IMG/VR virus record: IMGVR_UViG_3300007735_000798
Span: 40,737-104,736 of that record
DNA: 64,000 bases
Strand: one strand, 5' to 3'
DNA from: a virus
Both the position numbers and the translations under genes were made by a program. The notes under the pieces are model-generated. The model did no database searches, was not told where the DNA came from, and saw only the letters and a program-made list of their open reading frames with translations. Positions 12,501-61,599 of this stretch are shown here, piece by piece; position 1 is the stretch's first letter; each line of letters starts with the position of its first letter.

Positions 12501-15500
12501 GGATTTACGCCAGTTAATAACCCTAATTTTTTACCCGTTTCTTCGTCTAATTTTTTTAAAATAGGCAATGCCTCTTCTCCCTTTTTACCCTGTAAAGCCA
12601 TTCCAATGAATGTATCTCCAAGAAGTTTTATATTTTTTTCAACATCAGCGGTATCTGTTCCCCTAAATAAATAGTTATCTCGTCTACTAGCTAATTCACT
12701 AACCTTCTCGACATTAGCTCTATTTTCCTCTGCGCGTTGTTTTTCTCCTCTTATTTTTGCCATTTCTGCTTGTTGCGCAGTTTTTCCTTGTTTGCTTACA
12801 ATTCTTGCCTGATCTTCTGGTGAAAAATCTGCAAGAGCAGCGGCATATTCATCTTGGGCCTGTTTTACTTTTTGTGGATTTGGAACGGCTTCACTTAAAG
12901 CATTTTTTAAATTTTCGCTAGCAGTTGTTAATCTAGCTGAAGCATCATTAAATTTTGTTAATTCTTGACTAGCTTTTTCATGTGCGGCAATCGCTTCTGG
13001 TAATGTATTATTAAGCTCACTAAAATAATCATTCGCAGCCATAACTCCTCCAGCTATAAGCCCAATCGCGCCACCCGCAGCAGCCCCATAAGGACCAAAA
13101 GCCAGTCCTAATTGAGCACCAGTAGCTCCTAAACTTAGTGCTTGTCCCGCACCAGTAACAGCTGCCGCCGTTGCTCGTCCTTGCGGACTTGTCTGTGAAA
13201 TAGTATTTTTAATAGTGGCCGCAAGAATTGGAGCACCAATTGCTATTGCACTTCCATATGCATCCGCAGCAGCACCAAATTTTTTTACACCTTTGGCTGA
13301 ATCACCCAATGCTTGAAGATTTTGTCTATATTGATTTGTTGTTCCACTTAATACATAACTAAGTCCAACTAATTGAATACTTAACGCACCAAGTGCTGAA
13401 CTAGTACTTGTAGGCTCTTCTGCATAATTTGGTACAAAACCGCGAGAATACATTCCAATACCTTTTCGCTCGCGCCCAATAGCATCTTTTAATCCATTTG
13501 GTTCATCGCGTGTATTTGTCACAGCAATTGGGTTTCCATTTTTATCAAAATGTGCACGAATTTGAGAAACTGGAACGCCACGATTAGTAGAAGCAAAATT
13601 TGGAATAAAACCTTTCGCCATTCCTCTACTTAAAAATGCTGGAATATCTTTTTCAAAAATTCTACCAGGACCATTAGCTTGTTTAATTGGCCAAACAATT
13701 TGATCTTTACTTAAAGGTAGTCCATAAACAGAGGCACCACCAGTCTCCATATCTGGAAGTAGTTCTGAACTTTTTAGTTTATCCCTATTATATCTTACTA
13801 ACCAAGAACTTTGTTTTCTAGCTGAAGCCCAATTTTTTGCACGACCAATATTTTGTTTATAAGCTTGCCTATCGCTCATTTTTTCCCCTGGTCGGGAAAG
13901 AGCATCCCACATGTAAGTTCCAGAGCCACCAAAATATTCCATAGCAGATTGGTCAGAAGATCTATTTCGGAAGGCCCATCCTTTACCGAATTTAGATAAC
14001 ATCATTTTTAATTCTTTGTCATCTACGGCTCTTACGAGTGGTGCTGCAAAATTTGGAATAAAACCGCGCGCATAAATTGGAAAATCTTCTTCTCTTTTTA
14101 GTTGGCCTTTATTTTCTACATATTTTCTAACCATTTGACTATCAAAAGCGATACCCTTGCCACCATGAGTTCTAGATAATCTAAATAAAACTCTTTGAAT
14201 ATCAAATTCTTTTCCTGGAAATTTTTTTAATAATAATTGGTAGACTTTATCATCTACAATTCTTTTTTTAGGGAAGGTAATTTGTCCATAAGCTCCTTTA
14301 TAACCTTCTTGTTCTTCATCTGGAGAGGCAAATGCTTGGGCAACTTTTTTATTTTTAGAAGTGCTCATCATTCGCCAATTAACATCAGTCTCAAAATCTT
14401 GAGAAACTTGATCAAAAATAGCATCTTTAATCCCAGTAGGTTCAAAATCATCACCAGGAGTACCTAACATAGTAAAATCTTTATGTCTATAATCGTCTTT
14501 TCTACCAGCTCTTAGATTAAAAATACTTTGTTTATTTAATTTTTTAAAATCTTTTCCAGGAACTGAAACGCCACGATATAATTTTTCTGTTTGTTCTGAT
14601 CTGCCTAATTTTTTAATTATAGATAAATATTCTCTTAAAATTTGAGCATCAATTGCTTGGGATTTAAAATTAGGATTAGTATTAATATCTTTACGTCTTA
14701 GTGCTAAATCTTTACCAGTAGCTCTTGGTAAATCTTTAAAGTCAATACCACCCAAAAATTTTGGTGATGCAAAATTTGGAATAAAACCAAAAGCAGCTCC
14801 AGGCCTACGAAGAAACTCCATTTCTTTCATTTTTGTGGCTTGAGATTTAAAACCCATTTTTAACGCACGTTCTCCACGAGAACTTCTAGCAAATTGAGTA
14901 ACTTGATCAAAATCGTTTTTTGTCAAACCATTTTCTTCAAATTGTTTTTGAACATATTTCCAATCTCCGATTTTTAATGCATCGACATTAAAAGATCTCC
15001 CAAGCCAACCTTCACCCAACGCTCTAGATAAAGCTTCAATTTTAGCACGACCCTTTAGTGGGAATCCAGGTTGTTTTAGAAAAGCGTCTAAACCAGAAGT
15101 ATTAACGCCCAATTTTGTTGCGGCTTTTATATAAGCATTATTCGATAAACCACTACCCTCCGATAACTTAGTAGATATATTAGGATTAGTTATTCTACTA
15201 TTTATAATTTCTATTAATTTTGAATTTGCAAAATTTGGAACAAAACCAGCAGCCATACCTTTTGATCTACTAATTCTTGCCATTTCTTCTTTAATTGCTT
15301 TTTCTAGTTGTGGTCCTCTTCTTAGATTTTGTCCTTGAAGATTTTTTAAAGCTTCTGTTCTTAATGCTTGTGATTGCTTATAACCAGCACCACTTTTTAC
15401 TTGCTTTACTTCTCCAACTTTAGCTTCTTGTAGTAACTTGCTCATTACATCATTAACTAATTCTGGAGAATATTTAGCATCATACATTCCAGGAGCACCA

Positions 15501-48568: not shown

Positions 48569-48585
48569 AGCAAAAAAGGTGCCAA
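48569..48585 (-). promoter_or_regulatory. Sigma54-type promoter consensus
   Basis: TTGGCACCTTTTTTGCT (GG-N10-GC), ~30 nt upstream of ATG 48540; overlaps a TGTAATA late-type motif. Confidence 0.55.
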
Positions 48586-49959: not shown

Positions 49960-50345
49960 AATTATCTAGTTAGGATTAAATTAAAATTATAGGAAAAATA
50001 CCCTCCACCGATTTTTTTATTTTGATTCTTTTATTATTTATTCATTTACTCTTAAAGTTTTAGAAATGGGTAGGGGGGTATACATATACAAATACAGAGA
50101 AATCTATACATTATTACTAGAATATATATAGAAAGAATATATGAATAAGAGCGATTAAATTTAAATTAATTAATATAAATTATTCTCTTTCTATAATATA
50201 TAGAATAGAATATATTATAATAGAATGGGTTAAAATAAAGATATTAAAATAAATATTCAGGAGATTGAAAATGGACCCCTCCCCCACCCTAAAATTAAAA
50301 CACTCGTTCGTTTTTTTCAAAAAGTGGGGGGGGACTAGGCTTTTT
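49960..50345. other. Non-coding junction between divergent late and early regions
   Basis: No ORF; very AT-rich with G/C homopolymer runs; coding strand and GC content switch here. Confidence 0.6.
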
Positions 50346-50415
50346 AAACAAAAAAAAGTTCAAAAATCTTAAAAAAATCCCTTGCTTTTTGGCGCATCTG
50401 TGGTATCTTGTATAC

Positions 50416-50706
50416 ATGAAAGATAAACAAAACCAATTCACCAAAGGAAGCGTGTATCGCTTCGATTACCTGTCTCGCATGGGACGCTTCCACTACCAGA
50501 ACGTGCGATTCGCTCGCTACGTTGGCCCCTTCAAGTTTGAAGGCAAATACACTTGGAGCGACGACTCCATCCCTGCTGGGAACTACTCGTTCGTCAACGA
50601 GAACAACGAACCTGTCCAGATCGTTGACTGGATGGTTAACGAAAAGACCGCACAGGTCGAAACCTTCGGCAAAAACGAAAGGAACTTCCTGCGTCAAGAC
50701 TGGTAA
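50416..50706 (+). CDS. Early hypothetical protein
   Basis: ATG 6 nt after -10 box (MKDKQNQF...). Confidence 0.75.
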   Translation: MKDKQNQFTKGSVYRFDYLSRMGRFHYQNVRFARYVGPFKFEGKYTWSDDSIPAGNYSFVNENNEPVQIVDWMVNEKTAQVETFGKNERNFLRQDW

Positions 50707-50749
50707 AAAAATCCCTTGACTTTCTCCACATCTCTGATATCCTACTAAC

Positions 50750-50980
50750 ATGAACACATACGAAAAACACATCACTCACAACGGAAGCGAATACTATCTC
50801 TGCACAGAGTATGCGTTCGATCACACCGACACTCTGCAAGTCTCTGACTTTACGCTGACCGATGAGGACGGCGAAGAAATCACGCAAGAGGCTTTCGAGG
50901 CTGACAAGGCTCTCTATGAGCGTGTCTGCGAAATCCTCGCAAACGAGGACGCTGTCTGCTATGGCGGCGCGCCTTGCTAA
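50750..50980 (+). CDS. Early acidic hypothetical protein
   Basis: Leaderless start; D/E-rich. Confidence 0.75.
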   Translation: MNTYEKHITHNGSEYYLCTEYAFDHTDTLQVSDFTLTDEDGEEITQEAFEADKALYERVCEILANEDAVCYGGAPC

Positions 50981-51012
50981 TTCAAACACTCGTTTCAAAT
51001 ACTCGTTTCAAT

Positions 51013-51087
51013 ATGCTAACACACGCTGCCGAAATCCTAACAGCCATTCTCATATTCGTCCTAGGCTTTGCCTTGCTCTGTATATAA
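51013..51087 (+). CDS. 24-aa single-TM peptide
   Basis: MLTHAAEILTAILIFVLGFALLCI; stop lies inside repeat R1. Confidence 0.45.
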   Translation: MLTHAAEILTAILIFVLGFALLCI

Positions 51088-51160
51088 GCCGTTGATAATC
51101 AACAGGTTACGACGGGGCGCCCCGCCGCGCGACGCAAGTCCTTGGTAATCAGCGACTTAC
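51084..51160 (+). repeat. 77-bp double-palindrome element R1
   Basis: ATAAGCCGTTGATAATCAACAGGTTAC + GC core + GCAAGTCCTTGGTAATCAGCGACTTAC. Confidence 0.9.
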
Positions 51161-51279
51161 ACAAACACACATTCAGAAAGCGTGCCAACTCACAAAACTT
51201 TTTTCTATCAACAAAAAAAACTTTCAACAACCGCAAAAAAATCTCTTGCTTTTTCCGTGCGCTGTGCTATTCTATATCC

Positions 51280-51498
51280 ATGTTCAAGATCAGATACCAA
51301 CTCATCCACAATCGTGGCTGCGAAACAGTCACCATCCAAAACCGCTCGGTCAAGCGCGCCATGCGTATGGCACGCACCCAAGCGTGGGATCAATACGCGC
51401 AATCGGGCGCGACTAACTGGGCCGATGTGTGGCTCACCATCACCAACCCCTACGGCAAGGTCGTCTATGCGGACTTTGCTCCGTCATCAGCGATCTGA
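51280..51498 (+). CDS. Early hypothetical protein
   Basis: Leaderless start MFKIRYQL. Confidence 0.7.
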   Translation: MFKIRYQLIHNRGCETVTIQNRSVKRAMRMARTQAWDQYAQSGATNWADVWLTITNPYGKVVYADFAPSSAI

Positions 51499-51540
51499 AA
51501 AATCGCTTGACTTTTCTCTTTCTTCTGCTATCCTTTAATC

Positions 51541-51915
51541 ATGAACAACGAAAACACCACATTCAACTTCAACGGAACCATCTGCAAGCTCGTCATCTCG
51601 GAGGACTTCGATGGTGACTGCACGAAACTTTGGCACGAACTCGTCAGCGTCGAGACTGGTAAGACCATCGCCACCCTCGACTGGTCGCCTTACTCTGTGC
51701 CCTCTGATGCGGAGGTCGAGCAACTTATCAGCCTTGGGGAAGTGATCCTCGGAGAATTCCACTTGCCCTGTGGTTTGCGTTTTGCTAACTCTCACCCGCT
51801 CTCACGCTTCAACTTCGACAGCAAGATGCTCGCCGCTTTTTTTGCTGGTGTTTACGGGGAAACTGTTGGCAAACTTGAACTTGTGTTCAGTGTGCGCCCT
51901 ACCTTGGCCGCATAA
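51541..51915 (+). CDS. Early hypothetical protein
   Basis: 124 aa; leaderless promoter. Confidence 0.75.
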   Translation: MNNENTTFNFNGTICKLVISEDFDGDCTKLWHELVSVETGKTIATLDWSPYSVPSDAEVEQLISLGEVILGEFHLPCGLRFANSHPLSRFNFDSKMLAAFFAGVYGETVGKLELVFSVRPTLAA

Positions 51916-51979
51916 AAAAACTTTCACAATCGCAAAAAAAATCCTTGCGTTTTCTCTCAACCTGTTCTATTCTTTAACC

Positions 51980-52198
51980 ATGAAAGACATCGACACCTAC
52001 ATCACCAACGCCCACTCCGACGATTTCGCCACGGAGGCGGAGGAGCGCGCCACCCTCAACACGTTCGCGGCAGAGCCTGCCGTCGAGCAGGAACCCGAAC
52101 CGCAACCCTACGATGGGTACGAGGGCCATTGGGCGGGGGATGGGTCGGGCATGGACGACCTCGCGGACTGGGGCGAGCAGGAGGGCTGGGACAACTAG
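51980..52198 (+). CDS. Early highly acidic protein
   Basis: MKDIDTY...SDDFATE...; leaderless promoter. Confidence 0.7.
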   Translation: MKDIDTYITNAHSDDFATEAEERATLNTFAAEPAVEQEPEPQPYDGYEGHWAGDGSGMDDLADWGEQEGWDN

Positions 52199-52260
52199 CC
52201 CAAACAATTCAAACGCCTGTTTCAAACGGGCGTTTGTTTTTTGCCCAAATTCCAAGTTGC

Positions 52261-52337
52261 GTAAGTCCTTGATATTCAACCACTTGCATTGGCGCGCGGG
52301 GCGTGCGCGCGTAAGTCCTTGATAATGAACGACTTAC
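52261..52337 (-). repeat. 77-bp element R2 (inverted core)
   Basis: Arms GTAAGTCCTTGA...; core GCGCGCGGGGCGTGCG is the reverse complement of the usual core. Confidence 0.85.
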
Positions 52338-52461
52338 GTGATGGCTTGCGAACCCGCATAAATACTGGCTTCGCGGGTGTCAAGCTTTTTTTGCAAAAAA
52401 AATTTTGCGTAATCGCAAAAAAATCCCTTGCTTTTTTGCAGTCCCGTGCTATTCTTTAAGC

Positions 52462-52647
52462 ATGAAAAAGAAATACTACACCAAAGCGGAAATCGTGGAA
52501 TTCGCCACGAAAAACAAAGCCACTTGCACGCACGCATCGTTGGCTTTCAGTTCGTTCATCTTCACCAACCGCGTTGGTCGCACTTGCAAGGTTGCGTTTG
52601 ATCGCGTGGATCATGGCGTTTGGCAGAAAAAAATCTTGAAAAAATAA
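52462..52647 (+). CDS. Early protein, paralog of 54605..54787
   Basis: MKKKYYT...NKA.CT...V.F.RVD..VW.KKI. Confidence 0.75.
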   Translation: MKKKYYTKAEIVEFATKNKATCTHASLAFSSFIFTNRVGRTCKVAFDRVDHGVWQKKILKK

Positions 52648-52682
52648 CTTGACTTTTCCCGCATCTCTGGTAGATTGTAAGT

Positions 52683-52856
52683 ATGAAAAACGGATACACT
52701 AAAAGCTGGCGCGCTAAAGAGCGCGTCGAAACTCTCGACCTTCCTCTCGCGGAGGACAACGATCACCCTGTTTGGGTGAAGCGTCCTAAAGACGCTTTCG
52801 AGCGTGAACTGGAGCGGTTGAACCGCGAAGAAAAGCGTAACCGCTGGTCACGCTAA
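52683..52856 (+). CDS. Early protein, paralog of 55754..55957
   Basis: 57 aa, MKNGYTKSWR...TLDLPL (below the ORF-track length cutoff). Confidence 0.7.
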   Translation: MKNGYTKSWRAKERVETLDLPLAEDNDHPVWVKRPKDAFERELERLNREEKRNRWSR

Positions 52857-52883
52857 AGCTTGTCAAGCAAAAAAGTGTTCAGC

Positions 52884-52960
52884 GTAAACCACTGAACATC
52901 AAGCGCTTACGACGGCGCGCCCCGCCGCGCGGCGTAACCCGTTGAAAATCAAGCACTTAT
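52884..52960 (+). repeat. 77-bp element R3
   Basis: Same arms and CGCGCCCCGCCGCGC core. Confidence 0.9.
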
Positions 52961-53078
52961 GCAAAGCGCCGTTCAGAAAGCGTGCCAACTTCAGAAATTT
53001 TTTTTCTTCAACAAAAAAACTTTAGAAAATCGAAAAGATTTTCATTGCTTTTTGCGCGTTCTGTGATATGCTGTATGT

Positions 53079-53351
53079 ATGAAAAAAGAAATCACCACAA
53101 TCGAACAAGCAAAGAAACTCTCCGTCTTGGAGTTCATGGATTTGTCCACTCTGGAACGCAAACTTCTGGATGAACTGAAGCGCGTTGAATCGCAGGTTGA
53201 ACTGCTCCAGACTTGGCTGGACAACGCTAACCAGTCGTGCGAAACCTTGCGCAAAGCACGCGACAACTATCGCAGACAGCTTGGCATCTCGTCCGATTGG
53301 GACACGATGGAATCTGTCCGCGACAAATACGATGCCAGACATGGCGGATAA
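53079..53351 (+). CDS. Early coiled-coil protein
   Basis: 90 aa; leaderless promoter. Confidence 0.75.
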   Translation: MKKEITTIEQAKKLSVLEFMDLSTLERKLLDELKRVESQVELLQTWLDNANQSCETLRKARDNYRRQLGISSDWDTMESVRDKYDARHGG

Positions 53352-53391
53352 AATCGCTTGACTCTCACCATCTTTCTGCTATTCTAAAGAC

Positions 53392-53640
53392 ATGAAAAAC
53401 ACCATCACCAAACACGAACTTAACGATCACCTTTGCCACGCTCGCGTTGCTCTGGTTCTTCAGAGCCGCGAACTCTACAAACGCCGCAATGGGTTTTGCG
53501 GAAAATCCTTCCGCCAAACTCTGCGCGACAACATCCGCGCCTTGCGCGTGTTGAGCAATCTCAACACCATCGAAGCGACTCTCTACTCGTCGTTCGCATC
53601 GCCCAAAGTAGGCAAAGCCGAAAAAATTCTCGGCTTGTAA
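53392..53640 (+). CDS. Early protein, paralog of 58400..58639
   Basis: TK.E.N..L..AR.AL...RNGF...R.LS...TI.A.LYS. Confidence 0.75.
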   Translation: MKNTITKHELNDHLCHARVALVLQSRELYKRRNGFCGKSFRQTLRDNIRALRVLSNLNTIEATLYSSFASPKVGKAEKILGL

Positions 53641-53681
53641 AATCGCTTGACTCTCACCATCTTTCTGCTATCATCACTTTT

Positions 53682-53852
53682 ATGAAAAAAGAAAAACTGA
53701 ACCAACACCTCGTCGAAATCTTCCGCGCGATTGATCGGCTCAATCACGCAATCGGCAACGGGAAGATGCCGAAACTCGACAAGGGACAAAAAATCGTCCT
53801 GCGTTCGGCACTCATCACGCTCGACAACATCGCACTAGAGGGACTGCAATAA
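53682..53852 (+). CDS. Early hypothetical protein
   Basis: Promoter duplicated from the one at ~53350 (AATCGCTTGACTCTCACCATCTTTCTGCTA). Confidence 0.65.
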   Translation: MKKEKLNQHLVEIFRAIDRLNHAIGNGKMPKLDKGQKIVLRSALITLDNIALEGLQ

Positions 53853-54082
53853 TGTCACAAAACGAAAACATCATGAAGTCGCTTCACGCTCTCGCAAAGC
53901 ATGAGGTTGCCATGCAAGCGCAGGAGGCGGAAATCGTCGAACTGAAAAATCTTTTGTCTCGCGCCTTGCACACCATCACCATGCACGAGCACAAACTCAA
54001 TCTTTTGTGTGGCGTTTCTACCACGCTTGCGGTAGAGTTGCACAAAGTTAAAAATAACCAAATCACATTCGGAGTAAACTAA
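53852..54082 (+). CDS. Early coiled-coil protein
   Basis: Translationally coupled (TAATG). Confidence 0.65.
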   Translation: MSQNENIMKSLHALAKHEVAMQAQEAEIVELKNLLSRALHTITMHEHKLNLLCGVSTTLAVELHKVKNNQITFGVN

Positions 54083-54083
54083 C

Positions 54084-54248
54084 ATGAAAACACAATTGTT
54101 CTCACCCTTGATGCTGGAAAGCGCGGAAGAAAATCTGCGCAAAGAATACGAAAAAAAACTTGGTCGCTTGCCCCTGTGGTGGTATCCTTGCGCTTTCATT
54201 GCTTTTGCAATCCCAATCGTCACTCTAACTCTAATCATATTCACATGA
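54084..54248 (+). CDS. Small C-terminal TM protein
   Basis: 54 aa, MKTQLFSP...; ATGA overlap with the next gene. Confidence 0.55.
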   Translation: MKTQLFSPLMLESAEENLRKEYEKKLGRLPLWWYPCAFIAFAIPIVTLTLIIFT

Positions 54249-54400
54249 GCAAAATCATCATGACCATCGACACGCGACCGCTCGCGCGCGCGATTGAGCG
54301 CAGTGTTCGCAAGACCACTTGCCGTCCTTCATTCGCCATGCGTGTCAAGAAAAAATTCACGCGCAAGGCAAAGTTTTTTCGCGGTTGGTCTGACGAGTAA
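54245..54400 (+). CDS. Small basic protein
   Basis: MSKIIMTID...KKKFTRKAKF; stop inside R4. Confidence 0.6.
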   Translation: MSKIIMTIDTRPLARAIERSVRKTTCRPSFAMRVKKKFTRKAKFFRGWSDE

Positions 54401-54473
54401 AGCGTTGAATATCAACGACTTACGGCGGCGCGCCCCGCCGCGCGACCTAAGTGCTTGAAAATCAACGACTTAC
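54397..54473 (+). repeat. 77-bp element R4
   Basis: GTAAAGCGTTGAATATCAACGACTTAC-GGCGGCGCGCCCCGCCGCGCGAC-CTAAGTGCTTGAAAATCAACGACTTAC. Confidence 0.92.
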
Positions 54474-54604
54474 GCAAAGCGCCGTTCAAGAAGTGTGCCA
54501 AGTTGCGGAACAAAACGCTCGTTTGAAAAATCATCAACAGAAAAAAGTTACGGAACCGCAAAAAAATCCCTTGCTTTTTCGCAGTCTTGTGGTAGAGTGT
54601 ATAC

Positions 54605-54787
54605 ATGAAAAAGAAATACTACACCACGACAGACATCAATGCCTACGCTCTCCGCAACAAAGCGGTTTGCACATTCGGAGGTTTGAACCTTCGCGTGTTC
54701 AAGGGTTGGACTGCGAAAGGTTCTTACGAGGTGAAATTCCACCGCGTTGACGCTCTCGTGTGGGAGAAAAAAATCGTAAGAAAATAG
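54605..54787 (+). CDS. Early protein, paralog of 52462..52647
   Basis: Shared N- and C-terminal motifs. Confidence 0.75.
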   Translation: MKKKYYTTTDINAYALRNKAVCTFGGLNLRVFKGWTAKGSYEVKFHRVDALVWEKKIVRK

Positions 54788-54822
54788 CTTGACTTTTCCC
54801 GCATCTCTGATATCTTAAAAGC

Positions 54823-55038
54823 ATGAAAAATAAAAACACCACTCCTCAACCGAAAGTCGGACAACTCTGGAGAGTCGCCACTGGCGAACGCAAAGGCGGT
54901 TACACTCTCGTCCGCGTCACCGAAATCATCGGCACTCTGGCTTGTGTTCGCACTCACGAAAACAAACGCGGCCACATCCTGCTGGACTACCTACATCCCG
55001 CCTCGAAAGAGGACATTCAAAACTATCTGAAAAAATAG
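54823..55038 (+). CDS. Early SH3/KOW-like small protein
   Basis: PKVGQLW...VRVTEI pattern; leaderless promoter. Confidence 0.65.
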   Translation: MKNKNTTPQPKVGQLWRVATGERKGGYTLVRVTEIIGTLACVRTHENKRGHILLDYLHPASKEDIQNYLKK

Positions 55039-55073
55039 TTTGACTCTCTCCACATCTCTGATACTCTAAAAGC

Positions 55074-55328
55074 ATGACAACCTACAACGAACAAAAGTGC
55101 TACACGGCAAAGGTGAAAAACCATCTCACGAACAAAACGAAATTTTTCGATGTGTTCGCGCCGTCGATCAGCAAGGCAATCCTGCTCGCTGAAGAACTCG
55201 GCTCCTTGTTCTTCTGCACGGCAAGCGTCGAGTGCATCGCCTGTGGCCTCAATCGCTTGGGCAAAGCTCCTGCCGTCATCACGGACGACATTCCTCCCGC
55301 GCCCACGGAGATGAGTCCAATCATCTAA
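55074..55328 (+). CDS. Early hypothetical protein
   Basis: Leaderless promoter. Confidence 0.7.
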   Translation: MTTYNEQKCYTAKVKNHLTNKTKFFDVFAPSISKAILLAEELGSLFFCTASVECIACGLNRLGKAPAVITDDIPPAPTEMSPII

Positions 55329-55370
55329 AAAATCTCTTGACAAATTCAAATTTTCTGATAGATTAAAAGC

Positions 55371-55541
55371 ATGAAAAATAAAAACACCACATATGGTTCG
55401 CGTGAACACACACGCGAGGAGCAGTGCAACTATCGGCTCGTTCAAGACCCGAACGCTCCGAACTACGATCCCAACTGGGAGGATCCAGACCTTCGTCGGT
55501 TAGCTCGCCGTGAGGCTCGCAACTACGGAGGCGACTGGTAA
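55371..55541 (+). CDS. Early hypothetical protein
   Basis: 56 aa, MKNKNTTYG...; shares its 5' end with 54823. Confidence 0.65.
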   Translation: MKNKNTTYGSREHTREEQCNYRLVQDPNAPNYDPNWEDPDLRRLARREARNYGGDW

Positions 55542-55589
55542 AACAGTCGTTTGAAACACGCGTTTTGTCTTGTCAAAATTACATTCTTT

Positions 55590-55666
55590 GTAAAGTGTTG
55601 AACATCAAGTACTTGCACGGGCGCGCCCCGCCGCGCGACCTAAGTGCTTGAAAATGAACGACTTAT
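55590..55666 (+). repeat. 77-bp element R5
   Basis: Same arms and core. Confidence 0.9.
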
Positions 55667-55753
55667 AAATGTCAAGCAAAAAAATAATAAAAAAAATTGC
55701 ACAATCGCAAAAAAAATTCTTGCTTTTTACGCGTTCTGTGCTATCTTGTATAC

Positions 55754-55957
55754 ATGAACAGAAACGGATACACCAGAAGCTGGCGCGAAGAAGAGCGTCT
55801 GCAAACCCTCGACCTCCCACTCGGCATTGATCCTTGGGATCCTGCCTACCAACGCAACCCAGAGGCTTACGAGCGCGACATCGAACGGATGAACCGCGCC
55901 GAAGGGCGTTACAACCGCTACGGACTCTGCTATCGGGAGCCTAAAAAAAGCTCTTGA
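55754..55957 (+). CDS. Early protein, paralog of 52683..52856
   Basis: NGYTRSWR...TLDLPL...ER..ER.NR.E.R. Confidence 0.75.
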   Translation: MNRNGYTRSWREEERLQTLDLPLGIDPWDPAYQRNPEAYERDIERMNRAEGRYNRYGLCYREPKKSS

Positions 55958-55988
55958 CCCTAACCACAAAACAAACCACAATAACACC

Positions 55989-56204
55989 ATGACGAAAAAA
56001 CAATTCGACGCCATCGCAAAAATCTTGGGCAAGCGTCTCGCTGAAAAAGTAGAAGCTCCCATCGGAGAGTATGAAGTTGTCGAAGTCCTCGCGTTGGACT
56101 TTGCGAAATACTTTGCCGAACAGAATCCGCGTTTCGATGAGGATCGCTTTCTGGAAGCGGTTTACGTTTCAACCCCCAACATTCCTGTTGGATCATATAA
56201 ATAA
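55989..56204 (+). CDS. Early hypothetical protein
   Basis: MTKKQFDAIA...NPRFDEDRFLEA. Confidence 0.75.
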   Translation: MTKKQFDAIAKILGKRLAEKVEAPIGEYEVVEVLALDFAKYFAEQNPRFDEDRFLEAVYVSTPNIPVGSYK

Positions 56205-56298
56205 ATTATGTCAATCTGGGAACCACTCTTTTACCTGTGCATCTTTCCTGCCGCTTGCGGTTTCTTAATCCTCTGGGCAGACTCTAAAAAATAATCTC

Positions 56299-56541
56299 AT
56301 GAAAAAATACATATACACCATCGTGGTTGCTCTGATGAGTAGCCTTCTCACCCTCGTCCTCACTGGCATCGCTGTTTGCGTGTTCATCATCGCGCCGTTC
56401 AACAAAGCGGCTGTTGATCGTGGCTTTGCAAGCTGGGTCGTGACCAACACGGCAACTGGCGCGACCAAATTCGCTTGGAACGAACCCGCGTCAGTCGGTG
56501 AAGATTTCTTCGCGCAAATCGAAAAGCCTCTCGACAAATGA
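56299..56541 (+). CDS. Small membrane protein
   Basis: Long N-terminal TM segment. Confidence 0.65.
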   Translation: MKKYIYTIVVALMSSLLTLVLTGIAVCVFIIAPFNKAAVDRGFASWVVTNTATGATKFAWNEPASVGEDFFAQIEKPLDK

Positions 56542-56735
56542 TCACGCCCAACATCCAAAAAGCACTTGAGTCAAACGGAGTGCGGTTCTTTGCAAAAGAC
56601 TTTCTCATGGAAGGTATGCGGAAAGACTGCGTTGACGCTGTGCATGACGCGCATCTTGTCTATACGCTACTGAAAGAGCGCATGGAAAAAATGCTTGGCA
56701 CGGAAAGCAAAAACGAATACGCTGGAGAAGTATGA
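56538..56735 (+). CDS. Early hypothetical protein
   Basis: ATGA-coupled to the previous gene. Confidence 0.65.
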   Translation: MITPNIQKALESNGVRFFAKDFLMEGMRKDCVDAVHDAHLVYTLLKERMEKMLGTESKNEYAGEV

Positions 56736-56866
56736 TAAAAATAATCAAACGCCTGTTCGGAATAAATCAAACGCCTGTTTCACTGCTCGCCTTGAGCCTG
56801 TGGCACTACAACACTTCCACATGGCTAGAGCGCGCCATCTGCAACGGCACGATTGACGACTACATC

Positions 56867-56943
56867 GTAAAGCGTTAAGAATCAACGACTTACGGCGGCG
56901 CGCCCCCGCGCGCATCGTAACTCCTTGAAAATGAACGACTTAT
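56867..56943 (+). repeat. 77-bp element R6
   Basis: Same arms and core. Confidence 0.9.
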
Positions 56944-57062
56944 GAATAGGTGCAAATACTATCATACTAAGGAAAGAATGTCAAGCAAAAAAGCATAAAA
57001 AAATTTTCAAAAAAAATAAAAAAATCCCTTGCATTTTTTCAGATGTGTGGTAGTATGTATAC

Positions 57063-57256
57063 ATGAGATAAAGATAAGGACATAAACCAACCCACAGAGA
57101 GCCTCGTGCCTGCAAGTTGGTTGTCCCACATCGGCACAATTTTTGATTAAGAAAAGACATGAAAGTGTCGGGGTTCATTCTCAAGAAGGGTTGATCGCCA
57201 GAAAAGAGAGAGTGACGAAAGCGTTGGATCGTAATGACTAGGCCTCCTTAATCAAA
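57063..57256 (+). ncRNA. Candidate structured small RNA
   Basis: Full early promoter but the ORF is only ATG AGA TAA; stems GGACA..AACCAAC/GTTGGTTGTCC and TTGATTAAG/CTTAATCAA. Confidence 0.5.
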
Positions 57257-57298
57257 CTTTTTTATTGACTTTTTTCTGCGTTCGTATAAACTTTAACC

Positions 57299-57529
57299 AT
57301 GCTAAGTAAAACACCACAAGTGGGAGACAAGATCATGTATCGGTTCTCCCAAGGCAGAACCAAACACCCTGCAACCATCATCGCCATCGAGGGCGAACAC
57401 TGCATCTTCACGCTCGATGGGGACTGCGACGAGATAAGCGGCGTCCGTGGCACGAAGTGGCCCATGTGGCACGGACTGCTCTACGACTACGACGAGACGC
57501 TTGTCAAGAAAAAAAGAAGGTGGCGATAA
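57299..57529 (+). CDS. Early SH3/Tudor-like small protein
   Basis: PQVGDKIMY...PATIIAI; stop inside R7. Confidence 0.7.
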   Translation: MLSKTPQVGDKIMYRFSQGRTKHPATIIAIEGEHCIFTLDGDCDEISGVRGTKWPMWHGLLYDYDETLVKKKRRWR

Positions 57530-57602
57530 GCCACTGAACATCAACGACTTACGGGGCTGCGCCCCGCCGTCCGTCGTAAGTGCTTGATACTCAACGGTTT
57601 AT
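57526..57602 (+). repeat. 77-bp element R7
   Basis: Same arms; slightly diverged core. Confidence 0.88.
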
Positions 57603-57805
57603 GCATTTATGAAAAAATACAAAATCGTCATAGTAAATGAATAAATAATTACCAATTACTGATTACCATATCTTAATTCTAACTATTTGACCAAAAGCTA
57701 TTTCACAATTTTACCGTGAACTTGTCAAGAATAAAAATGCAAAAATAAAAAATAATTTTTAGAAAAATCTCTTGCGTTTTTGTATGTCTGTGCTATTCTG
57801 TATGC

Positions 57806-58003
57806 ATGACAGAAAAAGAAACCACCAAGTGCCCCAAGTGCGGGGGGAAAGCCACGCAAACCTACGAGCCACCCTATCAGGAATACGCTGGAGCCAGCGT
57901 TCAGGGCGGCTACTACTACGTTGAGTGCCCGTGCGGTCACGAGGGCACTCAGGAGGCCAGCCTCGACGACTACAACTGGCAAGAGAATACGAGGGGCTGG
58001 TAA
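57806..58003 (+). CDS. Early zinc-ribbon protein
   Basis: CPKCGG...CPCG; stop inside R8. Confidence 0.75.
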   Translation: MTEKETTKCPKCGGKATQTYEPPYQEYAGASVQGGYYYVECPCGHEGTQEASLDDYNWQENTRGW

Positions 58004-58076
58004 GCCCCTCATTCTCAACAACTTACGGCGGCACGCCCCGCCGCGCGACCTAAGTGCTTGAAAATGAACGACTTAC
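58000..58076 (+). repeat. 77-bp element R8
   Basis: Same arms and core. Confidence 0.9.
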
Positions 58077-58208
58077 ATAAAACCACTTTCAGAAAGTGTG
58101 CCAACCTTGGGGCCTGGTCGCACTTTTGCGTAAAGTAGCACTTTACGAAATAGTGACGAGCCGAAAAAAATCCGTTGCATTTTCGCGCCGCTGTGGTAGA
58201 GTGTATGC

Positions 58209-58361
58209 ATGACAGAGAAAGAAAAACAAATCCAAGACATCACCGCAAAAATCGAACAAGTCGCAGAGGATTTGATCGACCCTATGCTGGACGATCAAAC
58301 GACTGTTTTGCTCAACCACTTGAGCAAGCTCCGCAAAAAACTTGCGGCACTGCAAAAATAA
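58209..58361 (+). CDS. Early small helical protein
   Basis: 50 aa, MTEKEKQIQ...; leaderless promoter. Confidence 0.6.
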   Translation: MTEKEKQIQDITAKIEQVAEDLIDPMLDDQTTVLLNHLSKLRKKLAALQK

Positions 58362-58399
58362 TCCTTGCAACCAAACGCAAAATCAGAGAAAATAAAATC

Positions 58400-58639
58400 A
58401 TGAAAGTCACCAAAATTGAAATGAATGAAGCCCTCATCCAAGCTCGCATTGCCTTGTCGAAAGACATCCGCGATTTCTTGAAATATCGCAATGGGTTTCT
58501 GGCTGAAACTTACCGCAGGAACATCCGCGAAAAAATCGCGGCCTATCGTCTCCTCTCCAGCATCGACACAATCGACGCTCAACTCTACTCGTTCGACGCT
58601 CGCACTCGCGCAAGGGTGAAAAAAGCCCTTGCCAAGTAA
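58400..58639 (+). CDS. Early protein, paralog of 53392..53640
   Basis: Shared motifs. Confidence 0.7.
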   Translation: MKVTKIEMNEALIQARIALSKDIRDFLKYRNGFLAETYRRNIREKIAAYRLLSSIDTIDAQLYSFDARTRARVKKALAK

Positions 58640-58664
58640 GTCAAATTCTGCGAAAATCACCACC

Positions 58665-59339
58665 ATGAAATTACTCGCCACCAACACCAAACTCGAAAAG
58701 GGCGCATCCTTTGGATGGCGCACACTCGGACTCTCACTCTCTCCCGCTGGAAAATCTGGCAAGCAATTCTGTCCGCATCGCTCGGCAGGTTGTGAAGCCG
58801 CTTGCCTTGACACTTCGGGCATGGGAATTTTTTCTAATGTTCAAGATGCGCGCCTTGCCAAGTCGCGTTTCTTCATCGACAAGCGCAACGATTTTCTCGC
58901 GCAGTTGAACCGCGAAATGCACAACGCGGAAAAAATGTCCGTGCGCACAAGCGTGCCCGTTGCCGTGCGTCTCAATGTCTTGTCTGACCTTCCGTGGCAC
59001 AAGCTGATCGACATGGCGCGCTTTCCATCAATCCAGTTTTACGACTACACGCCGAACATGGAACGCATGATGCAATTCCTTCGCGGTGAACTTCCGAAAA
59101 ATTATCACCTGACATTCTCGCGCAAGGAGGACAATCAGCATCGCGTTCACGCTGTCATCGCCGCTGGCGGTAATGTTGCGGTTGCGTTCAACAAACTTCC
59201 CGACACCTATCTCGGCAAGCCTGTGATCGACGGAGACAAAAGCGATCTGCGCTTTCTCGACGCGCAGGGCGTGATCGTCGGACTCAAAGCAAAAGGCAAG
59301 GGGAAGAAAGATACCTCTGGCTTCGTGGTGCAAATCTGA
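58665..59339 (+). CDS. Gp88-like phage protein (Cys-cluster enzyme)
   Basis: LSLSPA...CP..S.GC.AACL, RLNVLSD, FYDYT, NYHLTFS, DGD.SDLRFLD. Confidence 0.75.
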   Translation: MKLLATNTKLEKGASFGWRTLGLSLSPAGKSGKQFCPHRSAGCEAACLDTSGMGIFSNVQDARLAKSRFFIDKRNDFLAQLNREMHNAEKMSVRTSVPVAVRLNVLSDLPWHKLIDMARFPSIQFYDYTPNMERMMQFLRGELPKNYHLTFSRKEDNQHRVHAVIAAGGNVAVAFNKLPDTYLGKPVIDGDKSDLRFLDAQGVIVGLKAKGKGKKDTSGFVVQI

Positions 59340-59428
59340 ATATAATGGGCACTTATGGAAATAATTTCTTTGCTCGTTGTCATTCTCTGCGCTTTTGCAA
59401 TCAATCATAACTCAAAAAAATAAAAACT

Positions 59429-59587
59429 ATGACATCTAATCTAATCGCACGAAAAAACTTGTTCAGCTTGTCGCAAAAATTTTTCAGCTTGGCCCTATGG
59501 TCGGAGCGCGCAGGCATCACGCCTCTGCAAAAACTTTCTTTCGCCATCTGGAAAAAATTGCTTGACACACGCGACAAACTGCGGTGA
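59429..59587 (+). CDS. Small basic protein
   Basis: 52 aa; ends 1 nt before R9. Confidence 0.5.
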   Translation: MTSNLIARKNLFSLSQKFFSLALWSERAGITPLQKLSFAIWKKLLDTRDKLR

Positions 59588-59588
59588 C

Positions 59589-59665
59589 GTAAAGCGTTGA
59601 TAATCAACGACTTACGGGCGCGCGCCCCGCCGCGCGGCGTAAGTGCCTGGAAATCAACGACTTAT
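59589..59665 (+). repeat. 77-bp element R9
   Basis: Same arms and core. Confidence 0.9.
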
Positions 59666-59783
59666 GCAGAACCACATTCAAGAACCATGCCAACTTGTCA
59701 AACTTTTTTTCGTCAACAAAAATACTTTCTAAAAATGCAAAAAAATCCGTTGCATTCTCGCGCGGCTGTGGTATAGTTACATC

Positions 59784-59918
59784 ATGCAAGCAAGCTCCAT
59801 CATCAACGACGACTTCACCGCAACCATCCAGAGCGACGAGTTCGCAACGGAATTCGAGGCATGGCTCGACGAGCAGGAAAAAAATTATTGGCGCGAAATT
59901 GAAGCGGAGGGAAATTAA
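59784..59918 (+). CDS. Early acidic protein related to 51980..52198
   Basis: 44 aa; IQSDEFATE vs AHSDDFATE; leaderless promoter. Confidence 0.6.
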   Translation: MQASSIINDDFTATIQSDEFATEFEAWLDEQEKNYWREIEAEGN

Positions 59919-59960
59919 CCGCTTGACACTCGCGCACGAATCACCGATACTTTAGACCTT

Positions 59961-60245
59961 ATGCAAACACCACAAAACCCATTGGAGGGATATGTCTCCA
60001 TCTGCTGCGGAGTGCAGCACGACATCAACGCAGAATACACCATCGACAACGAGGATGTCGTCGGCGGTTGCTGCTCCTGCAAACGCTACGCGGAATTCGT
60101 TCCTGCGGAGGACTTCGTTCGCCGCAAGCGCGGCGTGATCAATCGCCTTGCGTTTTCGGGAGTTAATCAATCCCAAGCCTCTGCGCTCGCTTCGCTCAAC
60201 TCGTTCGTGCCAGACGACACGGACTACCACATGGACTTGTGGTAA
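59961..60245 (+). CDS. Early Cys-rich protein
   Basis: SICCG...GCCSCK; leaderless promoter. Confidence 0.7.
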   Translation: MQTPQNPLEGYVSICCGVQHDINAEYTIDNEDVVGGCCSCKRYAEFVPAEDFVRRKRGVINRLAFSGVNQSQASALASLNSFVPDDTDYHMDLW

Positions 60246-60288
60246 ACCGCTTGACACTCACACGCTCACTCTCTAAACTCTCAACTCT

Positions 60289-60783
60289 ATGGAACAAGCT
60301 AAAATCATAATCAGCACATACGGCAACGGCATCGCTGTCGGCCTCAACGGAACACGCGAACAGATCACGCGCACATTCAACCGATTCTTTAATTGGGGTG
60401 CTGCTGGTGCTGGCGCAAACTTCATGCGCTCAAATCAAGACTGCGAGATGCAGCATGGCGAATTGGGTGACTCCTACTTGCACGAAATCGGGGAAAACTT
60501 TTCCTACTTCCTCTCGACTGACGAGAACATGGTTCGTGCTCTGACTGCCGAGACGATTACAAAGTGGCAGGACTCTCCGATCAGCGAGCAATATAAGTCT
60601 CGCCCTCGTCACCATAAGAAACCAAACGGCACAAAGTTCGTGCGTGATGCGGTTGCCGCTGCGACTGCGGAATATAATTCTTTCGCACGCGAAAACTTCA
60701 TGCTGTTCGGCAAAACTCCCACACACATCTACCAGCAACTCGATGGCGGCGCGCCGTCTTGGATCAGCGAAACGGAGGACTAA
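60289..60783 (+). CDS. Early hypothetical protein
   Basis: 164 aa; promoter upstream. Confidence 0.75.
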   Translation: MEQAKIIISTYGNGIAVGLNGTREQITRTFNRFFNWGAAGAGANFMRSNQDCEMQHGELGDSYLHEIGENFSYFLSTDENMVRALTAETITKWQDSPISEQYKSRPRHHKKPNGTKFVRDAVAAATAEYNSFARENFMLFGKTPTHIYQQLDGGAPSWISETED

Positions 60784-60786
60784 TCT

Positions 60787-61041
60787 ATGTCACACATAGT
60801 TATAGAAATCAAAGGCGAGCTTTGGAGTTTCATTTGTGCAAATCCTAATCTGGGCAGCTATGACATACTCGCCAAGTATAGCAATAAAGGAAAAACAATC
60901 GTGAATAAAAACTTCGGAGAAAAAAATTCTATTGAACTTATAGGAGTCACTCACCTAGAAGTTGCTGCAATTAAGTTTGCGGAAAGCATATACTATGACA
61001 CACATCCGCGCCCAAACCTTGTCAATATAAAAAAATACTAA
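60787..61041 (+). CDS. Hypothetical protein (AT-richer than neighbours)
   Basis: SD GGAGG; ends 1 nt before R10. Confidence 0.6.
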   Translation: MSHIVIEIKGELWSFICANPNLGSYDILAKYSNKGKTIVNKNFGEKNSIELIGVTHLEVAAIKFAESIYYDTHPRPNLVNIKKY

Positions 61042-61042
61042 T

Positions 61043-61119
61043 GTAAAACGCTAATAATCAACGACTTACAGCGGCGCGCCCAGCCGCTCGGCGTAATTCC
61101 TTGAATATCAGCATTTTAC
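61043..61119 (+). repeat. 77-bp element R10
   Basis: Same arms and core, somewhat diverged. Confidence 0.85.
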
Positions 61120-61277
61120 AAAAAATCAACTCCTACTCTAGAATCTGATAAATAATTCTGATAATCTATAATATATTCCCCTATTTAACTATTTAGCCTT
61201 TCGCTATTTCACTATTATACAAAAATATTTTTACTATTTAGCTTGATTTTTTTGAAATTTGTTGTAGATTTATAGAT

Positions 61278-61350
61278 GCGGGGCAATGTTCCAAGGCTGG
61301 CGAGAAGGTCTCCAAAACCATCTGGCAGAGTTCGATTCTCTGGCCTCGTG
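61278..61350 (+). tRNA. tRNA-Trp(CCA)
   Basis: Acceptor GCGGGGC/GCCTCGT, anticodon loop CTCCAAA, T arm CAGAG-TTCGATT-CTCTG; weak D arm; no encoded CCA. Confidence 0.75.
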
Positions 61351-61353
61351 CGC

Positions 61354-61425
61354 GGGATGGTAGCTCAAAGGTAGAGCAGCGCCCTTTTAAGGCGTTGGTT
61401 GTGAGTTCGATCCTCACCCATCCCA
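61354..61425 (+). tRNA. tRNA-Lys(TTT)
   Basis: GGGATGG/CCATCCC acceptor, GCTC/GAGC D arm, GCGCC-CTTTTAA-GGCGT, GTGAG-TTCGATC-CTCAC. Confidence 0.92.
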
Positions 61426-61470
61426 TAAAAAATCCATTGACAAATCAATTTTTTCTGATATATTAGGTGT

Positions 61471-61599
61471 ATGAAAAAGAAAACCACCGCTGAAAAAACT
61501 CTCACCGAGATTGCCAAGATCGCCCTGTTTGAGGCTAACGCCAAAACTGGCCTAAAAAAAATCCAAAAAATCTTGGAAAATTTTCAAAAAACCCATTGA
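61471..61599 (+). CDS. Small Lys-rich protein
   Basis: 42 aa after a TTGACA-N16-TATATT promoter. Confidence 0.55.
   Translation: MKKKTTAEKTLTEIAKIALFEANAKTGLKKIQKILENFQKTH

Follow-up and report, generated by a model that had tools for sequence, protein, structure and literature searches.

A sigma-54-type box at constant distance from a double-palindrome element in the cassette arrays of uncultured large phages

Results

The cassette array and its five boxes

The DNA analyzed here (hereafter the window) is the final 64 kb of a 104.7-kb virus record of IMG/VR (IMGVR_UViG_3300007735_000798), in which small plus-strand genes form an array of cassettes separated by a ~78-nt double-palindrome element; beside five copies of this element stands a 17-nt box of sigma-54 type, the subject of this report. 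Up to about 50.3 kb the window has a GC content of ~30% and encodes structural and packaging proteins, including TerL, a 2964-aa tape measure open reading frame (ORF) and a virion protein adjoining the array. From there to the end of the contig (window 50300-64000) the GC content is ~47%, and this part is the array itself, a 44-49% GC island inside a ~31% GC genome, that is, a 15-point difference. The junction is real and an assembly chimera could be ruled out, since two complete relatives of 166.5 and 178.5 kb with direct terminal repeats hold the same island internally, with 11-12 elements each; it lies at about 15-35 kb in one (G002) and about 17-33 kb in the other (G004). An integron was also considered and rejected: the array lacks the adjacent tyrosine-recombinase integrase that goes with attC core sites, the adjoining 444-aa ORF is a virion structural protein (phrog_1645) and the record is that of a phage.

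The window contains exactly five boxes, all on the minus strand and all beside elements R1, R3, R4, R8 and R9 (Table 1), where an earlier note on this DNA, drawn from the letters alone, had quoted them. One hundred shuffles gave an expectation of 0.33, with fewer than five boxes in every one. To the left of each box, 10 nt away, ends an element of repeat family D3, and the gap from the G-A doublet of the box to the GTAAGT arm of the element is 12 nt. The earlier note had described this linker as variable; its length holds exactly, but a T-rich stretch beside the arm is semi-conserved and it is the remainder that varies. According to the start-site rule of E. coli sigma-54 sites, transcription begins 19 bp from the motif centre (PMC4591121). 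Applied to the five boxes, the rule places every predicted start exactly on the last base of the element, in agreement with the expectation of a start at the repeat edge. A 24-aa, strongly hydrophobic ORF (window 51013-51087, plus strand) ends on the invariant TAA of R1 and faces box 1; it resembles a small membrane peptide opposite a convergent antisense promoter, and neither a promoter nor a ribosome-binding site of its own was seen.

Table 1. Boxes, elements and promoters of the window.
Feature	Position	Strand	Remark
Sigma-54-type box 1 (G-G, 10 nt, G-A)	51172..51188	-	predicted start 51161
Sigma-54-type box 2	52972..52988	-	predicted start 52961
Sigma-54-type box 3	54485..54501	-	predicted start 54474
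Sigma-54-type box 4	58088..58104	-	predicted start 58077
Sigma-54-type box 5 (TGGCAT variant)	59677..59693	-	predicted start 59666
Element R1	51084..51161	.	two palindromes around an asymmetric GC core; four TCAA-N4-TTA (IHF-consensus) sites
Element R3	52884..52961	.	minus-strand hairpin and T-run terminator overlaps left edge (52898 to 52866)
Element R4	54397..54474	.	
Element R6	56867-56944		beside leftward sigma-70 promoter
Element R8	58000..58077	.	
Element R9	59589..59666	.	
Rightward leaderless sigma-70 promoter of box 1 head	51246..51282	+	-35 TTGCTT, 16 nt with TG, -10, 6 nt, ATG 51280
Equivalent rightward promoters of the other boxed heads	start 53045, 54571, 58175, 59750	+	
Leftward extended -10 sigma-70 promoter beside R6, in the place of a box	56956..56984	-	TTGACA, 17 nt, TAGTAT, TG before -10
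Additional perfect TGGCAC-N5-TTGC outside the array	48570..48584	-	upstream of a Shine-Dalgarno site and ATG 48540

Conservation of the box in related phages

In a first survey, viral contigs were scanned with the GC core of the element and then with an nhmmer profile of the whole element, which yielded 73 distinct elements with full flanks from ~13 related contigs; the box was found at the identical offset in 39 of them. After a second scan the collection amounted to 132 distinct elements from ~20 related phage contigs, and 59 of these carry the box, again at the identical offset and in the form of 40 different 17-mers. The conservation of the 12-bp spacing among relatives, which the earlier note had proposed to look for, is thus seen in both sets. 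The offset from the element never changes and 70 elements have no box whatsoever. Read on the minus strand, TTGGCA is invariant in the 59 copies and is followed by C (46 copies) or T (13), then by G (52) or A (7), four variable bases, a -15 base that is mostly C or T, and an invariant T-G. Eight positions therefore never change among the 40 17-mers, although their neighbours on either side and in between do, and G-G and the G of the -12 doublet keep their spacing in 59 of 59 copies. Several relatives display a perfect TGGCAC-N5-TTGC at the same offset, and each phage genome has 4-5 boxes, every one of them at a block boundary. We conclude that the observation is real and far beyond chance, and, because the offset is constant while many elements lack a box, that the box is a selected and separable module across a family of uncultured large freshwater phages.

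Outside the array only one good match to the sigma-54 consensus was noticed in the window (Table 1, last line). It stands in the AT-rich part, ahead of a strong Shine-Dalgarno site, and is conserved in the relative G002, at 14502, in front of a different downstream gene.

The double-palindrome element

The window holds eleven copies of the element, which consists of two 25-27-bp palindromes, 50 bp apart, flanking a conserved asymmetric GC core. TCAA-N4-TTA occurs four times per element; among the first 73 elements A20 and T26-T27 are invariant, C19 and A21 vary in 5-6 copies, and the four bases inside each site vary, a pattern that corresponds, at the level of the sequence, to the IHF consensus WATCAA-N4-TTR. 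The element folds as a long interrupted hairpin, equally well on both strands and with no U-run. A structured RNA was considered and is not supported, as compensatory change is almost absent, G-U pairs show no strand bias, and neither RNAalifold nor Rfam returned anything for the element (the Rfam search of the array retrieved tRNAs only). The IHF-type pattern, the scarcity of compensation, the equal folding of both strands and the lack of an Rfam match make the element look more like DNA that a protein binds than like a structured RNA.

Some elements have an inverted GC core (R2 at window 52261-52338, and others at 309 of L001 and 862 of L010); these are preceded by a plus-strand hairpin and T-run terminator and have no box. 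Minus-strand hairpins with T-runs cover the left edges of R3 (52866-52898) and R7 (57510-57534), and the former would limit the leftward RNA of box 2 to about 95 nt. In the first set of 73 elements, these two, at window 52884 (R3, boxed) and 57526 (R7, unboxed), are the sole cases of a leftward terminator just past the element, so most leftward transcripts would run antisense into the previous gene.

Cassette heads and their shuffling

From left to right a boxed cassette head is made of the leftward box, 38-79 bp of phased A-tracts, and a rightward promoter with a TTGC-type -35 and an extended -10; the distances from box to rightward -35 fall into clusters of 38-39, 48-49, 55-57, 67-70 and 78-79 nt. 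Nearly every gene of the array has its own promoter (-35, 16 nt including TG, -10, 6 nt, ATG), and since the ATG follows the -10 by 6 nt the array mRNAs are expected to be leaderless. About 25 promoter-like sites were counted in the array of the window, most of them with an ATG 6 nt on. These promoters (50416-61599) are highly uniform, with a -35 of TTGCNT or TTGACT, the TTGC type coming first after an element and the TTGACT type inside a block. Some heads have a leftward hairpin and T-run just upstream of the box. The box is absent from elements that follow tRNAs or terminators, or that stand directly before a rightward promoter.

One head type replaces the box. Beside R6 lies a near-consensus leftward sigma-70 promoter (Table 1), which the earlier note had also seen and which is present with a TG before its -10; such boxless heads occur in three phages (the window, L010 and L020), and their start falls a few bases short of the same element arm. 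Heads are therefore often bidirectional, and this substitution by a sigma-70 promoter is the best internal argument for the box as a promoter.

When the elements were clustered by their upstream gene the classes were mixed, and when they were clustered by their downstream flank the classes were pure, from which it follows that exchange occurs inside the element and that the box travels with the downstream cassette head. In keeping with this, one upstream gene can be followed by different heads, depending on the phage. DNA sequencing runs from freshwater, river and soil contain joints and loose ends at cassette boundaries, and the loose end at 52959 leads on into another head, also box-first. 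Within window 50300-60200, two of these runs (X2 and X3) showed loose ends as well as many joints at the boundaries; the joints skip between 274 and 7805 nt, except for one that jumps back. These population joints are consistent with ongoing cassette shuffling in natural populations.

The phage and its possible host

The TerL protein is only ~23-25% identical to those of large Bacillus and Clostridium phages, the window has no DNA match among cultured phages, and no cultured relative was found through a 370-aa ORF taken for the capsid protein. Among genome contigs the search for a host returned only five contigs of 1.2-1.9 kb in metagenome-assembled genomes of four unrelated taxa, probably mis-binned, and in Atlas only viral clusters. 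The strong Shine-Dalgarno sites, the TG-extended -10 and the A-tract upstream regions would fit Firmicutes or Proteobacteria, both commonly RpoN-bearing. Two divergent sigma-70/ECF-like (extracytoplasmic function) sigma factor genes are carried by the phage (window 44121-44825, minus strand, and G000:C1:30275-30481, minus strand). A tRNA-Trp and a tRNA-Lys gene lie within the array (window 61278-61425), and in relatives an element directly abuts or overlaps a tRNA 3' end.

Discussion

How the box might work

The resemblance between the box and sigma-54 sites goes beyond the two conserved blocks. In the 17-nt motif obtained from E. coli by chromatin immunoprecipitation sequencing (ChIP-seq), positions 3, 4, 14 and 15 are important and positions 8-10 and 12 are unimportant (PMC4591121); the invariant positions of the box are the important ones and its variable positions the unimportant ones, and only position 16 departs. 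The position matrix of the box also contains the extended -24 consensus (Y-TGGCAC-G), T-T/C-T before the -12 G, and a spacer of low information. We tentatively favour, at a little less than an even chance, the idea that the boxes are genuine sites of the host sigma-54 holoenzyme and act as leftward promoters of a bidirectional cassette head. A promoter of sigma-54 type, or failing that a site occupied by the holoenzyme, is the identity with the most support. From the sequence, the geometry, the conservation, the linkage with the head and the sigma-70 alternative we infer that RpoN would bind, that some activator would fire the promoter, and that the arrangement would serve a biological purpose. 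The putative sigma-54 identity advanced in the earlier note has gained ground through the relatives with G-C, the information profile, the position of the predicted start and the sigma-70 substitution.

In the mechanism we propose, the host sigma-54 RNA polymerase holoenzyme would recognize the box as the leftward half of the head and a host activator ATPase would fire it. The transcript would then begin at the final base of the double palindrome, traverse the element and, at most sites, read on in antisense over the 3' end of the cassette that precedes it. Its likely uses would be to insulate or silence the upstream block, or to couple through supercoiling to the divergent sigma-70 promoter. 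It is tempting to go further and to speculate that these phages wire host sigma-54, with its stress- and nutrient-sensing activator ATPases, into every major block of the early array, so that the state of the host would trigger the leftward transcripts; such transcripts would act on the preceding cassette by silencing or insulating it, or on the divergent early promoter by strengthening it through supercoiling, and the frequent A at -12 might loosen the dependence on an activator. We consider this extension improbable.

Several observations speak against a sigma-54 promoter, and the most serious concerns the -12 base. This base, one of the best-conserved positions of sigma-54 sites, is C in 24 of the 59 copies and A in the other 35, including all five boxes of the window, so the box mostly departs from the consensus there. 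An A at -12 is found at 4 of 135 ChIP-bound E. coli sites (OA04, IS41, IS44 and IA27), which means that the holoenzyme can bind such sites and also that they are rare (PMC4591121). The copies are, moreover, perhaps 8-10 haplotypes rather than 59 independent samples, because the following base and the linkers co-vary with the doublet: the base after G-A is A in 34 copies and G in 1, and the base after G-C is G, T or C. The pattern of the second scan itself included the box, which biased the new hits towards box-bearing elements. No gene lies downstream of any box on the minus strand. The perfect match at 48570-48584 can equally be read as a sigma-70 promoter (TTGGCA, 17 nt, TATAGT).

The protein partners are also missing from the phage. 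No Sigma54_DBD or Sigma54_CBD domain was found in its own record, nor any Sigma54_DBD in five relatives, three of them complete, and the phage records contain no enhancer-binding activator ATPase, the hits to PF00158 being RuvB-like AAA+ proteins. Relatives encode, at L044:1225-2163 and L042:799-1767, an AAA+ protein of RuvB type whose C-terminal domain is the RuvB winged helix and which may have a part in branch migration at the palindromic elements. Across head types no conserved enhancer precedes the box; the only common neighbour is the element, which lies downstream (+1 to +78), and an activator supplied by the host, or an enhancer role of the element from its downstream position, is conceivable. 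As to IHF, the usual cofactor according to the earlier note, classical sigma-54 promoters have their IHF site upstream, whereas the elements do show conservation of the IHF consensus but their sites lie downstream of the predicted start. No IHF/HU gene was found on the phage records. No RNA run was listed as containing the array region, and two runs of doubtful RNA label are probably DNA, are stored as contigs and cover little of it.

Alternative explanations

The box could be the site of another sequence-specific protein that sits upstream of the neighbouring rightward TTGC-type promoter, in phase with the helix, and controls it, be it an early regulator of the phage, a transcription factor of the host or one of the phage's sigma-70/ECF-like sigma factors, and we hold this family of explanations to be possible, though rather unlikely. 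The presence of the box is perfectly linked to the type of the downstream head, a linkage that is expected anyway because recombination occurs within the element. Box to -35 distances of 38-39, 48-49, 67-70 and 78-79 nt do increase by steps of about one helical turn, but those of 55-57 nt, which make up a third of the total, do not fit this phase, and the classes amount to a few inherited head types. That the phage encodes two sigma-70-family proteins speaks for an alternative sigma factor, yet no -35/-10 geometry of 16-18 nt fits the box; a sigma-70 or ECF promoter was rejected, as inspection of the sequence found no -10 at 16-18 nt. The -12 base, which breaks the sigma-54 rule in most copies, also speaks for another protein. 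The site, however, has no dyad symmetry, and its G-G, 10 nt, G blocks, one helical turn apart, together with YTGGCAC-G, are a specific sigma-54 signature.

Alternatively, the sigma-54 holoenzyme could bind without firing, the boxes forming poised barriers from one cassette to the next or, along the lines of the alternative in the earlier note, decoys that would titrate host RpoN while the phage genome replicates. Holoenzyme is known to wait at its promoters as a closed complex without activity, and the majority of E. coli sites are occupied but inactive, although the bound holoenzyme is no roadblock on overlapping genes (PMC4591121). The lack of an activator gene or upstream enhancer on the phage, the 4-5 boxes at block boundaries in each genome and the predominance of a non-consensus -12 base would all suit a silent site. 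On the other hand, the -12 element is a determinant of the stability of closed complexes (PMC5095919), so that an A there should weaken a decoy, and the productive sigma-70 promoter standing in for the box in one type of head is an argument that selection favours transcription to the left. We regard silent binding as unlikely.

That the box is a functionless flank carried along by a recombination-spread repeat, as the few haplotypes shuffled between phages and the population joints at cassette boundaries in DNA runs might suggest, and as the earlier note had envisaged in the form of passive co-duplication, is contradicted by the conservation across genomes (eight fixed positions amid varying bases, a constant offset, 70 elements without a box) and keeps only a very slight probability.

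Comparison with known systems

If a leftward transcript is produced as we propose, it would recall lambda OOP RNA and the antisense RNAs of prophage type I toxin-antitoxin loci, which overlap the 3' end of a neighbouring gene and are made from sigma-70 promoters with defined terminators. The predicted array transcript would likewise be short and convergent and overlap the 3' end of its neighbour; it differs in that only two of the first 73 elements (R3 and R7) have a terminator beyond them. The E. coli RIP/BIME repeats, in which extragenic REP palindromes with an IHF site stand at the 3' ends of transcription units, share with our element their extragenic position at the ends of transcription units and the association of an IHF consensus with a GC-rich palindromic sequence. 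The order is nevertheless reversed in the array, where IHF-like dyads flank a GC core, and the array element is phage-borne and coupled to promoters.

Compared with sigma-54 promoters at large (consensus YTGGCACG-N4-TTGCW), the box has G-G and G exactly 10 nt apart, the full extended -24 match, a variable spacer and the invariant T-G of the -12 block, and relatives possess full-consensus copies. It is unlike them in having A for C at -12 in 35 of 59 copies, in lacking an upstream enhancer or activator, in having its IHF-like sites downstream, and in pointing at a non-coding or antisense region of a phage. To our knowledge, sigma-54 promoters are almost unknown in phages. Pseudomonas phage YuA, cited in PMC10914365, has a sigma-54-like promoter read by host sigma-54, as we propose for the array box; it is a single promoter before genes and not a repeated array module pointing antisense. 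A parallel for the geometry of the head is the Po/Pr pair of the dmp system, in which a sigma-54 promoter and a weaker sigma-70 promoter, divergent and non-overlapping, stand back to back a few tens of bp apart and are coupled through supercoiling (PMC5175336), a link that is possible in the array too. The dmp sigma-54 promoter, however, drives an operon and has DmpR enhancer sites (PMC5175336), whereas the RNA expected from the array box is non-coding and the arrangement recurs 4-5 times in each phage genome.

In the literature searched we found no description of the combination of a sigma-54-type box, a double palindrome and shuffling heads. If the promoter function proposed here is correct, these phages would have a new way to couple early-gene control to host signalling, and the box would be a sequence marker of RpoN in the host. 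The natural series of G-C and G-A boxes could serve directly to test how the -12 base affects the need for an activator.

Also among the closest known systems are the PeSLs (promoter-early stem-loops) of T4-type phages, short composite regulatory repeats between the small early genes of a hyperplastic region, where each gene has its own sigma-70 promoter and where modules are exchanged between related phages (PMC2839356, PMC4122927). The array likewise places a composite stem-loop and an early sigma-70 promoter between small ORFs and serves as a point of exchange between phages. The background is not that of a T4-type phage, given the 2964-aa tape measure ORF, the distant TerL and the lack of a DNA match to cultured phages. 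Unlike PeSLs, the array has as its palindrome a double IHF-like dyad of 78 nt, built around a GC core and lacking a U-run, and its head is bidirectional, with a leftward sigma-54-type or sigma-70 promoter; if our reading is right, a grammar of bidirectional head and IHF-like tail would be added to the PeSL type of modular exchange.

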